A stretch of DNA of 64,000 nucleotides from Chloroflexota bacterium (GTDB taxonomy: Bacteria; Chloroflexota; UBA11872; VXNJ01): positions 864,001 through 928,000 of the forward strand of contig OZ253449.1 in the NCBI GenBank assembly GCA_965261345.1, written 5' to 3'. The notes beneath the pieces were generated by a model that saw only the letters and a program-made list of their open reading frames with translations, searched no databases and was not told the origin of the DNA. How positions within the stretch are numbered: position 1 is the first letter of the stretch; the number at the start of each line of letters is the position of its first letter. A program made the position numbers and the translations under genes. This document shows, one piece after another, positions 6,868 to 13,581 of the stretch.

Positions 6868-7548
6868 TTACCACCACCTGCTGGCCTCGCGTACACACTC
6901 TGCCACATGGCTCGCGGCGAAATATCCGGCGTGAGCCAACGTCAATCTGCGACTCCGCCCCGGTCGTCTCTTCGGCCTGCCCGACCATCGGCATCAGCAG
7001 GGCATTGACATTGGCCTGATCCAACACGTCCACGGCGGTGACCAACATGCCGGGTGCCCCTCTTCCGTCTCCATGGGCGGGACCACATCCTGGGCGGTGT
7101 AGCCGGCAACGGTACCCTGTCCGCTCTCCATCAGTCGGAAGTTTGTGTCGCTTCTGACTCCCAAAATCGGCCATCGCTTGCCCCACCGATTCTTCTCAAG
7201 GCCTCCTTGTCGGCCAACTCCTCTGGCAAACGGGCAGCAGAAACGTCTTCTCCCGCTTCGTTTTTCTGTGCCTCAAGGTCGGCTATCACCTTATCCAGGC
7301 GCTCCAACAGCCCTCTCAGTCCTTCGGCATCATTGCTCCTTTTCGCTGAGGCGTTGGCGGCTACCTTCGTGCCATCCACCGCCTGGACCGCCAGATCAGC
7401 CACATCCATGACCACCGGGATGCGCACCGTCCGCTCAAGCAGCTTCCTAATAGCCTGTCGATGGCGTTTGTAGAACCGCCACAGGGTGTTGCGGTCAGGA
7501 TGCTGCCACCCGTGATCAACGACTTTGAGATTTGCCGGTCCCGTTGCC
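6868..7548 (-). pseudogene. IS1182-family transposase fragment (frameshifted, internally deleted)
   Basis: GWQHPDRNTLWRF, AVDGTKVAANAS and LTLAHAGY (degenerate LADAGY). Confidence 0.8.
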
Positions 7549-9180
7549 TTGCCTCACCAAAAAATGTAACCGAAATTTGGGACCGTTTATTTGACTCCGA
7601 TTGGCGCGATTTCACTTACGATTTCGGCGTTCTCAACCGCACCATCAGCACCGTTTACGACCCCGTATACGAGCTCTTTGGCCATAACCGACCGCCATTG
7701 CTTTGAGCCTGCGCTGCAACGTCCGCAGCTGCTTGGGACCGACAGCGTCGGGATGGTTGCGCATGAGTACTTTCAGGATCCCGGTGCCGCTGGCGTCGGG
7801 ATGATCCTGCAGGTAGCTAAGCACCTCGGGCCATATGTGCTCTAGGGGATCTCTACGCGTTCGCCACCAGATACGGCGTTTACGCTTGGGACTCCGGGTG
7901 GGATTGGCATCGCCCTCGCGCCAGAGGTGAGAGAGCCTGGCCAGGAATTGCGACAGATCGTCTCTTTGTACCTTGCTGCGTTCCTTAAGGCGATGCCAAT
8001 GTGGCCAGGGCCGACTGGGCCGCTCGGATCTCGCTAAGGAGCAAGAGCGGATCCAGTTGCAAGCGCGTAGCACGCAATCGCTCCTTGACCTTTTCGGCAA
8101 CAGCGGGATGATCAAGCAGTCGCTGGCAGGGAGTTAAGGGACGGTCGTAGCGCTTCAGGGTCCTGGCCCCGTATCGCTGCTTGGAGATCAGTTTGAAGGA
8201 CGGTTGGAAGAAATTGGTGTAGAGACCAACTAAGGCAAAGAGTCGGGCCAGGGTCTGTCCGGCGATGAATCCGGCAAAGCGTTCGTAGCCGGCAAAGCGC
8301 TCAGATTACGGCGCCGTTCTTCTGTTCGATGAAGGCCTGGTCATTGGAGCGATAGGCACGTGAGCGGGTGAACTCGATTTCACGCTGCTGGCAGTAGTCG
8401 ATAAGAGTCTGGGAGATGAAGGCGCTGTCGTTATCTTTAGTCGTCCGAGCACTGGAATCGGCAACCGCCCGCCTATAACCTCAAGCGCCTCGGTCACCAG
8501 CGTCTGCTCGCGGGCTAGCAGCGGGACTGCTTCAACCCAGCCCGAGGCAACGTCGGTAACTGACAGAGTCTGGATGAAGCTCCCGGCCATGTTGCCACCA
8601 CAATGGGCCACCAGGTCTATTTCCAGGTAACCGGGTTGGGGGCCATGCCAATCGGCAAACGTCCTGATCGGGACCTTGGCGTGATGACGGTTGCGGCGGC
8701 AGGGATTTCGCCGTCGGCTGCTGCCGGCGATCTTGCGCACTGGTTTGAGCATCCGATCGATCGATGCCGGGCTGATTGCGAGCAGCTTGCTTCTAAGGTC
8801 CAGATCAAGCTGCAGGTGGCCATGCCCTTCCAGTGATTCGATCAGGCTGGGCAATATCGCTTGCAATCGTTTGCCGCAGATGCGATCGGCTGCTTCCCTT
8901 AAGGACGATCAAGGAGTCCCTGACGGCCTCGTCGTAGATGCGGTATGAGGACTTGGTGGGCGGTGCCGGATCAGGGCTTGCAGCATTGCCCAGTATTCGG
9001 ATTGCGTATTTGCGGTTGTAGCCGCTAAGGGCTACGAATTCGTCCAGAATCGCGCCCTTGTCGCTCTTGGTCGAGCGCGCATAGCGGTCCTGCAACGCGG
9101 TCAGTATTTCCTTCCGCGCCGCCCGGCTCAGCTTCTTTCCTCGCATCGGTTGCCTCCCTATGGATTTGGGTTACAAATCT
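7549..9180 (-). mobile_element. ISNCY-type (rve/DDE) insertion sequence, decayed; left IR cut by IS110
   Basis: Right IR TTGCCTCACCAAAAAATGTAACCGAAAT starts at 7549. The matching inner half of the left IR, ATTTGGGTTACAAATCT, ends at 9180. Confidence 0.75.
7645..9146 (-). pseudogene. ISNCY-family transposase, several frameshifts
   Basis: Pieces spread over several frames: RYARSTKSDKGAILDEFVALSGYNRKYAIRIL, GYLEIDLVAHCG, WVEAVPLLARE, EFTRSRAYRSNDQAFIEQKN and RTRRDPL...QLRTLQRR. RBS GGAGG lies upstream of 9146. Confidence 0.85.
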
Positions 9181-9299
9181 TGTATGTTGGCAATGGGTAG
9201 TCCGGGTGCAGCGGACCGCACAAATCTCGGTCCGCTTTCGCGGGACCGTTCACTAGCATGGGTCGCCGCACCCGGCTCCCGCGGCCAATTACCCGAACG
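9179..9299 (+). ncRNA. IS110 (IS621-like) left end #1 with bridge RNA; target-binding loop intact, donor loop interrupted by the intron
   Basis: Starts CT|TGTATG. Stem CCGGGTGC/GCACCCGG (9202-9209/9268-9275) encloses guide ACAAATCT (9220-9227), identical to the left flank 9173-9180. Homologous to 11272-11383. Confidence 0.8.
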
Positions 9300-11232
9300 T
9301 TCGCGGTAGGAACACCGGTTACCCGGTGCCCCCCGCACGGATCCCGGCGTGCGCGTTAACGCACCGGGCTCTTAGCTTGAGTGTTTGACGGCAAAACGGT
9401 CGGCGGGCCATGGGTGGAGGATGGAGACGGTTGGGAGATGGGCAGTGCTCAATGCGCGCAGGCGCCCCCATGGGAATCGATCATGCTGCGACCGGCGGCG
9501 CAGGCTGCGTAACCACTGGCGCTCGAGTTCATATTTGAAACTCCTCAGGTACGTGGAGCTGGTTGGGACGGCGTAATAGCCGAGCCAGCCCCGCAGCACC
9601 AACCCGAGCCATTGCCCGGTCTGCGCGGGCGTCGTGCATGCGCATGCGTAGTCGTTCCTTGATCGCCTTCAGGGTGCGTCTGACGCGCTTGGCGATGGGC
9701 TTGCGTCCCAGTCCGAACTTTCCGTTGCTCATCGTCCGGCAGTAATGCGTTAGGCCGAGGAAGTCAAAAGTCTCCGGACGGCTGTCGTTACGCTGGCGGC
9801 GATTCTCGATCGCGTATCTGCCGAACTCGATCAGGCGGGTCTTGTGGGCTGCAAGCTCTAATCCGTACTCTTCTAGCCTGTCTCGCAAATCCTTTGCAAA
9901 TCTGACCGCATCGCTGCGGTACTCAAATCCCAGGACGAAGTCATCGGCATACCTGACGATGTAGACCTCGCCGCTGGCCCTTTTGGGTCGCCATTCCTTG
10001 GCAAACCATGAGTCCAGGACTTTGTGCAGGTACACGTTGGCAAGCAGCGGCGATATCGGCGCCCCTTGCGGTGTTCCCTGCACGCTGTCGGATAGTTCTC
10101 CGGCTTCCATTACTCCGGTGCTCAGCCATTTGCGGATTAGGCGCAGGACGCGGTTGTCTCCGATTCGCTCTCCCAGGAACGAGATGAGTCGCTCGCGGTC
10201 GAGATGGTCGAAGAAGCCTTTTATGTCGGCGTCAAGAATCCAGTTGACTTTTCTCCGTTCGATGGCGTAGGCCAGGGCGTCCAGCGCGTCGTGCGCTGAT
10301 CTTTTTGGCCGGAACCCGTATGCGAACCCGGCGAACTCCGATTCATAGATCGGGTCAAGGATCTGTTGACACACCGCCCGCTGCAGGATCTTGTCCTCTA
10401 TGGATGCGATTCCAAGCGCTCGCTTCCCGCCGTCCGGTTTGGGTATCGCTACCCGCAGGACGGGGGTCGCTCGGTATGCTCCTTTGTGCACGCGGTCTTT
10501 AAGGTCGAGAAGTTTCTCTTCCAGGTTTTCCTCGTACATCCTCCACGTGATCCCGTCGGCGCCGGGAGCGGCATTGGGTTTTAGCCCGTAGAACGCATCC
10601 CTTAGCGCGTCAAGGTCTATGTGGTGTAAGAGCGCGGTGAGTTTTCCCTCTGGGTTCTCTTTGGCGTGTTGCCGTACGCGTTCGGCTCCGGGTGACACGG
10701 GAACCCACCCCTGGGTGTAGTCCGTGCCGGTGCCTGGCGCGTTCCTCTTGCTTGCGGCCCTTTCCTCCGGCGGCTCCGCCGGGGTTTTACGCCCCATTGT
10801 TCGCCGCCTTCGCAGGTACTATGGCCGCATCAGACTTCTGCACATCGTGCATCATCGGCTACGGATACCTCCTTCCCGATGCGGCCCCGGATCTGCGAGT
10901 GAACCGGGGTAATGCGCAGATCTCCCAGTTCCCGGCCCGGGACTTACGTACGTACATGAGTTCTTTGACACCGTCGAGCCCGGCTGACGGCTGGCCATCT
11001 ATTGCCGCCGCCGGTGTTGCCTTCGACAAGATCAAGAGTCTCGGCGCTCGGATCGTCGACAAACCCGATGTTTCGGTGCTCCATAGCTCTGTCCGCACGC
11101 TCCGCTACCGACGCTTCACGGGTAACCTCGCGGTTACCCGCGCACGGCTCGCGGGCTGATGTGGGCTGGCTCTCGCCCTTCATCCCGGGAGACTTTCACT
11201 CCTTGTCCTGGTACCAGTTGGACTGGCTGTTC
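9300..11232 (-). mobile_element. Group II intron (class E-like), about 1.93 kb
   Basis: DV GAGCCCGGTGCGTTAACGCGCACGCCGGGATC and DVI ...CCTACCGCGAA at 9300-9371; 5' domain GGAGTGAAAGTCTCC. EBS1 UGAUCU (11029-11034) is complementary to the exon end AGATCA (11233-11238). Confidence 0.9.
9372..10698 (-). pseudogene. ltrA: Group II intron reverse transcriptase/maturase (no En domain), one frameshift near 9625
   Basis: IPKPDGGKRALGI, YGFRP, DADIKGFFD, GTPQGAPISPLLAN, RYADDF and FDFLG; continues in ORF 9372..9602 (LRGWLGYY...ILHPWP). Confidence 0.9.
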
Positions 11233-11284
11233 TGATCTGTTCGGGCGAGTACTTTCTTTTCGGGCTGTCCCCTTGTATGCAAAT

Positions 11285-11425
11285 GGGAAGTCCCGGGTGC
11301 TAGGGCGCCTGTACCTTGGTCCATTGAGACCGTTTTAAAGCACGCTCGCCGCACCCGGATCTCCCGGCGCATAGACCCCGAACAATTGCTCGGTGGGCTC
11401 TAGACCCCGTATTCGCAAGGAAGGG
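11285..11425 (+). ncRNA. IS110 bridge RNA #2 (target- and donor-binding loops; boundaries approximate)
   Basis: Donor guide ACAATTGCT (11382-11390) equals the right end 12598-12606 at 9/9. GCAAG (11415-11419) pairs with CTTGT. Target guides are CCTGTACCT and AAAG. Confidence 0.8.
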
Positions 11426-11460
11426 CGTAGCGTCGGGAGTAACTATAGGGAGTTTTACAT

Positions 11461-12377
<917 letters not shown>

Positions 12378-12606
12378 ACGCCGGGCAGGTCCGATCGCTC
12401 TTGCGGGCAAGGTCCCTGGCGAAGCCATGCCCGGGATCGGGCTATTGCGGCGATTACGCATCCGGTTATCGCCTGTCGATCGGGCTGCGGTCACTATGAA
12501 CCGCGGTCGGGGCGCTGGATCCCGGGAGACTTTCACTCTATCCTCCCCTTTCTCCTGGACCCCTCTGACCCCACCTCTGCCGGAATTGACAATCAAGACA
12601 ATTGCT

Positions 12607-12876
12607 TTCGTTGGAACCAGATTATTCACATTCCCTCTGGTACCAATGAGGGGGAGCCGGCCAATACCGCCGGAGTTGGGCAACCTCGCCAAGGTGGAAT
12701 CATTGTCCTTCGCTGGAAATCACCTGACCGGGGAGATACCGCCGGAGTTGGGCAATCTTGCCAATCTGGAATCGCTGAATTTCGCCGGTAACCAGTTGAG
12801 CGGGTGCGTACCGGGAAGCTTGCAAGACCAATTGGAATTGGAATCTACCTATCTGGGTGATCTGGAGTTTTGCTGA
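12607..12876 (+). pseudogene. C-terminal remnant of a plant-type LRR protein
   Basis: IPPELGNLAKVESLSFAGNHLTGEIPPELGNLANLESLNFAGNQLSGCVP...LGDLEFC*; no N-terminus is present. Confidence 0.8.
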
Positions 12877-12894
12877 GGTTCTGCCCTCGAAAAC

Positions 12895-13046
12895 GGTTCC
12901 CTCGCATGCGCAGGGATTTACTCACCGCTCGCGGGAAGCGGCCGCTTCTTTTACAACGTTCCCTCGCGCGCGCAGCGGATAGACGCAGCGGCCCGCATTC
13001 ATCCGATATTTGGCGTGGGTTCCGCCGCAAGCGCGGGGGAAGGCCG
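12895..13046 (+). CRISPR. Degenerate orphan type I-E-like mini-array (3 repeats, 2 spacers)
   Basis: GGTTCCCTCGCATGCGCAGGGATTTACTC (12895), CGTTCCCTCGCGCGCGCAGCGGATAGACGC (12957) and GGTTCCGCCGCAAGCGCGGGGGAAGGCCG (13018); period 62/61 nt. No cas genes in the window. Confidence 0.6.
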
Positions 13047-13167
13047 CAATCGATTGAGACAACGCGCGATGAGCGGCTGGATGATAGCCTTTAGAGCCCG
13101 CGCGCCGGCACTGCAATCGGCGACGGGAAACCCAATCGAGTGACGCGGTCAAAAAGAGGCAACTTTC

Positions 13168-13581
13168 ATGCGGAACTTGAAGCTAGTCCTTTTTGCGGTT
13201 TGCATGGCCGTTGCGTTGGCCATCGGCGGCTGCGGCGAAGGCCTGGAGGGTTCGGGTGAACATGGAGGCAGACAAGAGTCGGCCGACGGCGACGAGGAAT
13301 CCGGCACTCAATACGGACTAAACGACGAGTTCGAGCAGATTCGTTCAGGTGCCAGGTTGATGCTCTCTTACGACCAGTCCACCAATGCCTTCACCGGAAT
13401 CGTGGAGAACACGACCGGCAGCACCCTGGGGCAGGTGAGAGTTGAGGTTCATCTCTCCAATGGGATCGAACTGGGCCCGACTACGCCGATCAATCTGGGT
13501 CCCGCCGAGATGGTACCGGTAGAGTTGCCGGCTGGCAACCAACCCTTTGAAACGTGGAGCGCCCACGCTGAAGTCGGTTAG
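13168..13581 (+). CDS. Lipoprotein with small Ig-like (FxLYD-like) domain
   Basis: RBS GAGG, lipobox IGGC and FTGIVENTT...VRVEVHLSNG.ELGP. Confidence 0.7.
   Translation: MRNLKLVLFAVCMAVALAIGGCGEGLEGSGEHGGRQESADGDEESGTQYGLNDEFEQIRSGARLMLSYDQSTNAFTGIVENTTGSTLGQVRVEVHLSNGIELGPTTPINLGPAEMVPVELPAGNQPFETWSAHAEVG

Follow-up and report, generated by a model that had tools for sequence, protein, structure and literature searches.

A probable left-end remnant of a bridge-RNA IS110 element programmed to a repeat inside another insertion sequence in a Chloroflexota genome

The window analysed here, a 64,000-nucleotide (nt) stretch from a Chloroflexota bacterium (GCA_965261345.1, contig OZ253449.1, positions 864,001 to 928,000, forward strand), contains at 9181-9299 a short fragment, termed IS110A below, that is probably the 5′ remnant of an insertion sequence (IS) of the IS110 group. 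[quoted passage not shown] The features on which the analysis rests are given below in window coordinates.

7540-9180, minus strand: degenerate copy of a ~1.69-kb rve-type DDE IS (host IS), without the outer 49 nt at its 9180 side
9164-9180, plus strand: left half of the inner inverted-repeat-like (IR-like) repeat of the host IS, ATTTGGGTTACAAATCT, consisting of the left target and the CT core (core at 9179-9180)
9181-9299, plus strand: IS110A fragment, the first 119 nt of an IS110-family element, delimited by a covariance model and homology to the left ends of relatives
9202-9275, plus strand: target-binding loop of IS110A, from folding and the family alignment
9202-9209/9268-9275, plus strand: outer stem of the target-binding loop
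9211-9217/9260-9266, plus strand: second stem of the target-binding loop
9228-9235/9240-9248, plus strand: inner hairpin of the target-binding loop
9220-9227, plus strand: left target guide (LTG) ACAAATCT, 6 nt and the CT core, equal to the flank 9173-9180 in 8/8 letters
9250-9256, plus strand: right target guide (RTG) TCACTAG, reverse complement CTAGTGA, matching intact host-IS ends
9292-9299, plus strand: CCCGAACG, a conserved lead-in followed by the initial 3 nt of the left donor guide, where an intron interrupts it; relatives go on ...CCCGAAC-GGTTGC...

The host IS occurs in about 10 copies in the genome (88-90% identity), and its intact copies encode a 518-amino-acid (aa) transposase with Pfam rve; the window copy retains open reading frames (ORFs) of 121, 200, 106 and 162 aa. 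As an earlier sequence-only reading of this locus had claimed, the IR at the far end reads ATTTCGGTTACATTTTTTGGTGAGGCAA on the minus strand (7540-7575). This far end has a single IR and the target-side end two tandem IR-like repeats, the inner of which is the true counterpart of the far-end IR, because both share GTGAGGCAACGG. The insertion point lies in this inner repeat, 49 nt from the tip of the element and 32 nt upstream of the transposase ATG; past the core, intact copies continue with AGTGAGGCAACGG, the second repeat and the terminus ...GTCAATGCGC. The sequence-only reading had described the target as the ends of ISNCY elements: the host-IS end is indeed targeted, but away from its tip, and the ISNCY assignment is unproven. 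Against NCBIfam, the host-IS transposase reached 41 bits with IS481 (cut-off 224) and 25 bits with IS3 (cut-off 160), both far below the cut-offs; no ISNCY model matched at E ≤ 0.001, Pfam rve alone being found (37 bits), and a look-up of its protein clusters gave 0/35 and 0/29 named members. ISNCY is a catch-all for unclassified ISs, and the label is here not so much wrong as empty. The host IS usually sits in repeated sequence, arranged as TGATCnnCGACAnnTAnTnTGnCCGG | IS | CCGGCCAGAATAACTGTCGCTG (e.g., window 7514-7539 and genome 257729-257750), perhaps the end of another element or a palindromic repeat.

According to the account of guide pairing in Durrant et al. (2024, PMC11208160), the LTG has the same sense as the left flank, the RTG is the reverse complement of the core plus right flank, and the core is contained in both guides; the LTG is therefore expected to read as the left flank followed by the core, and the reverse complement of the RTG as the core followed by the right flank. 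In the window, 9173-9180 and 9220-9227 are identical, both reading ACAAATCT, in agreement with the sequence-only reading. The frequency of this 8-mer in the genome is ordinary (about 55 sites, counting both strands), and chance would therefore not be expected to place another copy at a distance of 40 nt. From the RTG, the same reading had predicted a right flank CTAGTGA, with AGTGA as the missing outer part of the host-IS repeat, and this could be compared with 10 other host-IS ends. Seven of them carry CTAGTGA (...GGGTTACAAATCT|AGTGAGGCAACGGCCCTGTTTGGGTTACAAAAACAGTGAGTCAATGCGC, then diverging), the intact letters across the insertion point being ...GGTTACAAATCT|AGTGAGGCA, which bears out both parts of the prediction; two read CT|TGTGAGG or CT|TGTGCGG, and one is scarred (CT|TGTATGTTGGCAACGG).

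The composite 13-mer ACAAATCTAGTGA has seven perfect sites in the 2.39-Mb genome, all seven in the host IS. Its two one-mismatch sites are a host-IS copy and, judged by eye, a seemingly degenerate related end, and 10 of the 11 two-mismatch sites appear unrelated to the host IS. The 13-mer is thus confined to host-IS copies, which indicates that the guides of IS110A had as their target a multi-copy site within a different mobile element, as had been proposed from the window alone.

The fragment itself is homologous to IS110 left ends, as found by aligning ~260 nt upstream of each IS110-family gene with 9100-9305. These genes were collected by tblastn with the genome's IS110-family protein (PF01548 and PF02371; 231 bits on NF033542, cut-off 140), which returned the lineages IS110B (seven to eight copies) and IS110C (three copies) and two singletons. 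The IS110A left-end fragment is a single copy in the genome, and the left ends closest to it, at 72-76% identity, come from other species of its genus. A covariance model (R1) built from eight relatives, with the IS110A sequence left out, matched 9179-9303 over its full length with 119.2 bits (E 2.5e-29) and 22/22 standard pairs. The bridge-RNA reading, for which a covariance model had been suggested as a check, is backed by this home-made leave-one-out model and not by Rfam, in which no bridge-RNA family matched at E ≤ 1 over window positions 7000-13500. The other Rfam matches in this range were a chance-level L20 leader inside the neighbouring intron and, over the target-binding loop, a sub-threshold match to sX15, a Xanthomonadaceae sRNA family, on the minus strand (9188-9336, 29.5 bits, E 0.063, gathering score 55); the sX15 family may itself derive from the opposite-strand reading of an IS110 left end.

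The fold of 9181-9299, a stem, an internal loop and a hairpin, has a free energy of -57.7 kcal/mol (z = -3.8), and none of 200 shuffles was as stable. Standard pairs occupy 87.3% of the pair cells in an alignment of nine distinct elements, compared with 27-42% in slid-partner controls, a comparison that favours the fold since it was drawn from the IS110A sequence itself. Nine pairs vary on both sides across the relatives, a number reached by none of 500 shuffles. A riboswitch or terminator reading of this fold was dropped, as the family model explains it.

The guide positions of IS110A share alignment columns with the flank-matching guides of other IS110 lineages of the genome and genus, which allowed the code to be examined across the family. 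When the LTG of each of the nine distinct elements was compared with its own flank, 34 of 54 non-core letters matched, whereas the non-self mean was 1.79/6; none of 100,000 permutations reached the observed LTG-flank total. The LTG columns read CTGTACCT in IS110B, with flanks ...CCTGTACCT in most copies, ACCCCGCT in IS110C, with flanks ...ACCCCCGCT and similar, and GCAATCCCCT in a fourth lineage, whose flank is identical; the genus relatives obey the rule to a varying degree. On the right side, the RTG columns of IS110B (TTTAAAG) match its right flanks CTTTAAA, CTTTTAA, CTTTTTA and CTTTAGG in 5-7 of 7 letters, those of IS110C (GCCGTAG) match CTACGGT, CTATGGC and CTACATC in 5-6 of 7, and those of a further IS110 element (L008, AAATCAG) match CTGATTT in 7/7. 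The guide code is valid in this clade, with some noise. IS110B and IS110C thus have the left-end architecture and guide columns of IS110A in common with it and guides that match their flanks, although their left ends align with it by blastn to different extents (B about 68% over 106 nt; C 84% over 31 nt only). They differ from it in being full length with several copies each, and in their targets: B copies are found upstream of another DEDD transposase gene and in an IS3-like left end, C copies in an IS3-like orfB. In one further relative (L009, G006:C1:2427977-2431075), at least two tandem ~100-nt IS110-type left ends with target-binding loops were observed at about 1400-1700, and the guide columns mismatch the flank.

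The right flank is deleted at the window locus, as the sequence-only reading had it, but it is present elsewhere in the genome, where two right halves occur. The first (genome 1299112, minus strand), turned up by a search for the outer part of the host-IS repeat, reads ...TTGACTTTTGACACGGTTG-CT|AGTGAGGCAACGG...GCGC, with ...GGTTG preceding the CT, and the RTG matches this junction in 7/7 letters. Upstream of it lie a 3′ non-coding region and the last ~40 codons of an IS110-type gene, whose surviving C-terminal piece of 34 aa is 64.7% identical to aa 285-318 of the IS110B protein. The gene is broken at about codon 284 by the 5′ stump of a group II intron in antisense orientation, as in one B and one C copy, and an unrelated IS cuts this stump. 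The second right half (genome 1600583-1602251, plus strand) is interrupted by an IS3-like element and ends CT|AATGAGGCAACGG in a diverged remnant. The two halves are 97-98% identical to each other and join the outer 49 nt of the same host IS in the same orientation; their outside flanks differ, and so do the joined remnants (AGTGA/TTTGGGTTAC vs AATGA/TTTCGATTAC). The same CT core is found at the left junction (9179-9180) and at both right junctions (before AGTGAGG and AATGAGG), and no terminal inverted repeats are present.

These two right halves are the only IS110 3′ ends of the genome that lack a 5′ partner, and 9181-9299 is alone in being a 5′ end that lacks a 3′ partner. They are also the only other large pieces attributable to IS110A in the genome, and both lie in host-IS repeats, contrary to what would have refuted the sequence-only reading. 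The donor-binding loop in the window is cut after CCCGAACG (9299), and just 3 nt (ACG) overlap the right end ACGGTTGCT from the other loci; these 3 nt, left before the cut (CCCGAACG|), agree with that right end. At the counterpart donor-guide position, IS110B has ACAATTGCT, which equals the IS110B right end in 9/9 letters. From the junction logic, the 3-nt overlap of the left donor guide and exclusion, the 5′ remnant and the two 3′ remnants would represent one element type.

Joining the right end and left end by script gave TTGACT and TATGTT 17 nt apart, which is a consensus match (sigma-70 type) only and combines ends taken from different loci; there is no such pair in the integrated state. 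A promoter reconstituted on the excised circle is described for IS110 elements in the part of Durrant et al. (2024, PMC11208160) dealing with the junction, and the computed junction fits a promoter formed on a circle, from which the guide RNA may be transcribed. An identical 21-nt right end, TTGACTTTTGACACGGTTGCT, is shared by IS110 elements that have different targets and come from quite different organisms, namely one Chloroflexota metagenome-assembled genome (MAG) record (L016) and two metagenome contigs (L017 and L018), so that the donor end is far more conserved than the guides. These three records were set aside as evidence on the IS110A target, as they are other IS110 elements with other flanks (CT|ACTACCG, CT|CAGCC).

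Three host-IS ends carry 13-16 nt of the IS110A left end at exactly the target site, one of them in another species, as listed below.

Genome 185838: CT|TGTATGTTGGCAA|CGG, 13 nt matching the IS110A left end
Genome 655912, minus strand: CT|TGCATGTTGCCAATGG|CCCTG, 14/16 letters matching the IS110A left end
G002, another species of the genus (L019): CT|TGTATGTTGGCAATGG|GCCCG, 16/16 letters matching the IS110A left end

All three carriers are degenerate host-IS copies, and the scars span two host-IS sublineages and the second species. The left junction, both right junctions and the three scars share the same CT and a single orientation. Positions 9-16 of the IS110A left end (GGCAATGG) nearly copy GGCAACGG of the target right flank; a deletion between GGCAATGG and GGCAACGG could remove the invader and leave a 13-16-nt scar (CT|TGTATGTTGGCAATGG). 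A scarred end no longer matches the RTG.

Public sequencing runs added further copies of this region, with contigs over window positions 8700-9800 from four runs of four studies. Behind 9180, the contigs with empty targets read AGTGAGGCAA... in three runs and AATGAGGCAACGG in one. In another study (X8), a contig of 814 nt spans 9299/9300, reaching 45 letters to one side and 500 to the other, hence the junction is not an assembly artefact of this genome. Some contigs (X3, X8, X9) pass 9299 into non-intron sequence, e.g., GATGCCCGGGGCCGATAGG..., which indicates that uninterrupted relatives exist in other samples. One X8 contig of low depth (3.86x) differs from the window at 9230, 9231, 9238 and 9254. 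As we read the letters, the inner hairpin is preserved with a shifted bulge by the two changes at 9230 and 9231. With T9254A the RTG reads TCACAAG; its reverse complement, CTTGTGA, is found as a variant target, CT|TGTGAGG, in the host-IS copy at genome 938576. The X8 variant RTG would then be a case of natural guide-target covariation. Scars that would block re-invasion and a variant guide (T9254A) that would follow a variant target (CT|TGTGA) might together record a sequence-readable arms race between the two ISs, a tentative idea to which we give rather less than even credit.

Combined with the above analysis, 9181-9299 is best explained, with a probability of roughly 0.88, as the 5′ remnant of a bridge-RNA IS110-group IS programmed to the inner IR-like repeat of the host IS. 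IS110A would have integrated by RNA-guided recombination at the CT core in this repeat, the reaction probably being catalysed by a recombinase that is no longer present. An antisense group II intron abuts IS110A at 9299/9300 within the donor guide, and this copy is dead; a later rearrangement, probably recombination between intron copies, would account for the loss of the transposase gene, of the right end and of the host-IS outer 49 nt, the order of these rearrangements being one that we infer. The gene with DEDD (PF01548) and Transposase_20 (PF02371) domains is absent from the window copy, the intron beginning at 9300, so the feature is a remnant of an IS110-group member and not a complete member; the view of 9161-9299 as a complete or active element was dropped. 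The insertion may disable the host IS or be costly to it; the window copy of the host IS is degenerate in any case. That it severs a host-IS promoter found no support, since a promoter scan of the host-IS end, the cut-off 49 nt, gave zero sites.

Several observations weigh against this explanation. No intact IS110A was found in the source genome, so that its activity is only putative; junction patterns searched in 20 relatives gave the G002 scar only for the left junction and nothing for the right one, and the exact 21-mer of the guide hairpin had no match in genome contigs and none in metagenome contigs. The left-junction contigs of the public runs reach 17-30 letters into the IS, below the 31-letter bridging rule, and the RTG variant is known from the single contig of depth 3.86. 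One right junction mismatches the RTG (AATGA, not AGTGA), similarity to relatives is not decisive for linking the 5′ and 3′ remnants, and the guide code has exceptions on both sides (L003 and L009 match their own flank in only 1/6 LTG letters; for the RTG, L006 and L010 have no right-flank match and L002 a partial one). Furthermore, the junctions and scars are possibly not independent insertions, because the outer repeat of an insert-carrying host IS stays intact and the whole could have been copied.

This last point is the strength of the foremost alternative, in which a single lucky insertion occurred with no specialisation and the junctions and scars are copies of one old event, spread as the host IS transposed or recombined; on this view, the notion of host-IS ends as a targeted multi-copy safe site would read too much into the data. 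Each IS110 copy matches its own flank by construction, the right halves are nearly identical to each other, the composite could still move after the insertion, all carriers are degenerate, and no active IS110A copy was found in the genome, in the 20 relatives or in the contig searches. On the other hand, the guides fix the target whatever the number of events, all perfect 13-mers lying in the host IS; the right-junction remnants differ in both sequence and outside flanks, the scars fall in two host-IS sublineages and a second species, and a variant RTG matches a variant target, the last in one low-depth contig. We therefore regard a single unspecialised insertion as unlikely.

It is much less probable that the orphan loop is still used, with transcription coming from the host-IS side and the recombinase of IS110B or IS110C receiving the loop in trans, which would direct B or C donors to host-IS ends. 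The section of Hiraizumi et al. [quoted passage not shown] The weakest alternative, that the guide match is due to chance or is a by-product such as a short direct repeat and that 9181-9299 is not a bridge-RNA remnant at all, could appeal to the failure of any Rfam family to reach threshold there and to the missing transposase gene after it in the window, and is scarcely tenable beside the 119-bit match to a model built from relatives only, the family-wide LTG-flank covariation, the structure kept across relatives and the blind right-flank prediction borne out in 7/10 ends and two right junctions. The preferred explanation, a remnant programmed to the host-IS repeat, is the one retained below.

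Beyond 9299, the window contains further mobile elements in the following order.

9300-11232, minus strand: group II intron, with a reverse transcriptase (RT)/maturase ORF at 9529-10797 (RF02005, TIGR04416, Pfam RVT_1)
11233-11271, minus strand: 5′ part of an IS3-like element (leader and first orfA codons), the usual 5′ exon of the intron
11272-12606, plus strand: IS110B, a second element of the IS110 family that encodes its own bridge RNA; this copy is degenerate and has CT cores at its bounds
12607-12658, minus strand: outer left terminus of the IS3-like element, split by IS110B

The intron scored 141.9 bits with RF02005 (gathering score 49) and 316 bits with TIGR04416 (cut-off 300), and occurs in nine genome copies, whose alignment gave its boundaries: it starts GAACAGCC... 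and ends ...CCTACCGCGAA. Group II introns usually start with GUGYG. In the window, its 3′ flank is the IS110A remnant and its 5′ flank (11233-11271) the start of the IS3-like element; three other intron copies have the same 5′ flank, and the IS3-like copy at genome 1600700-1600800 contains it without interruption. Its usual home is GAACAGATCA|TCAACAAGC in orfA of the IS3-like element. As the two flanks come from different elements, recombination between intron copies probably followed the insertion into IS110A. Across the genome, intron copies lie in the sense orientation in IS3-like orfA or, in three cases, antisense at about codon 284 of IS110-family genes, and in several of them the 5′ and 3′ flanks do not belong together, as recombination between introns would leave them.

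Intact IS110B copies, among the seven to eight present, encode a 315-aa protein (231 bits on NF033542, cut-off 140). In the window copy, frameshifts occur and the 3′ non-coding region carries a 15-nt insert (about 12528-12542); the site of this copy in the left end of the IS3-like element, GCTGTCCC-CT-TTCGTTGG, is an imperfect match to the guides (CTGTACCT / CTTTAAA); most other B copies occupy CCTGTACCT|...|CTTTAAA-like sites just upstream of another DEDD-type transposase gene. IS110C copies lie at genome C1 1301497-1302900 (L014), 147412 and 818346. The IS110C guides (ACCCCGCT / GCCGTAG) match ...CACCCCCG-CT-ATGGCTACAAG in the IS3-like orfB, a site coding for HPRYGYKRI that occurs in about eight IS3-like copies; a further mobile element is thus the target of a second IS110 lineage as well. 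All IS110 lineages and group II introns of the 2.39-Mb genome sit in other mobile elements, which may mean, as part of the same tentative idea, that mobile elements in a small genome survive mainly by mutual parasitism.

IS110A resembles elements of the IS621 type in many respects that are covered by the descriptions of these in PMC11208160 and PMC11208158: the non-coding RNA is encoded in the left end, the left guide lies on the 5′ side and the right guide on the 3′ side of the loop with a hairpin between them, both guides contain the CT core, the left end begins with CT|TGTAT, terminal inverted repeats are absent, nothing beyond the core is duplicated, and a promoter is predicted across the right-end/left-end junction. 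It differs from IS621, as described there, in that its natural target is the end of another IS and not a REP element, and the window copy differs further in lacking the donor-binding loop, the recombinase gene and the right end. Targeting of this kind has reportedly been seen before: Mueller, Lauf and Hermann are said to have described in 2001 that IS1383, of the IS110 family, integrates in the IRs of IS1384 in Pseudomonas putida H. IS1383 and IS110A are alike in being IS110-family elements aimed at the inverted repeat of another IS. In contrast to IS1383, IS110A occurs in another phylum (the one named close record is from Chloroflexota) and has another target IS, its guide-target base-pairing is directly readable, and its site is the inner of two tandem repeats, the site of IS1383 being, going by the title, the IR as such. 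Likewise, Partridge and Hall reportedly found in 2003 that IS4321/IS5075, of the IS1111 group, insert in the 38-bp terminal IRs of Tn21-family transposons. Common to these and IS110A is the position- and orientation-specific insertion of an IS with a DEDD transposase in the terminal repeat of another transposon. The account of the IS1111 group in PMC11187229 places the guide (seekRNA) region downstream of the transposase gene and describes subterminal IRs; the IS110A guide RNA, unlike that of IS4321/IS5075, lies upstream, as in the IS110 group. A search of bridge-RNA-era literature for IS110 elements nested in other ISs yielded nothing specific, and the supplementary target tables of Durrant and of Siddiquee may list such cases.

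The kind of targeting is thus already known from IS1383 and IS4321/IS5075, and IS110A is a further case from a distant phylum, which leaves the knowledge of the mechanism of IS110 elements unchanged. It is a clean natural example of the bridge-RNA code, as the guides of a 119-nt relic predict a flank absent at its own locus. Orphan IS110 left ends of this type are usable in annotation for inferring lost neighbours and past rearrangements, and the scars, with the possible guide/target co-variant, provide material on the co-evolution of RNA-guided transposons and their mobile targets.

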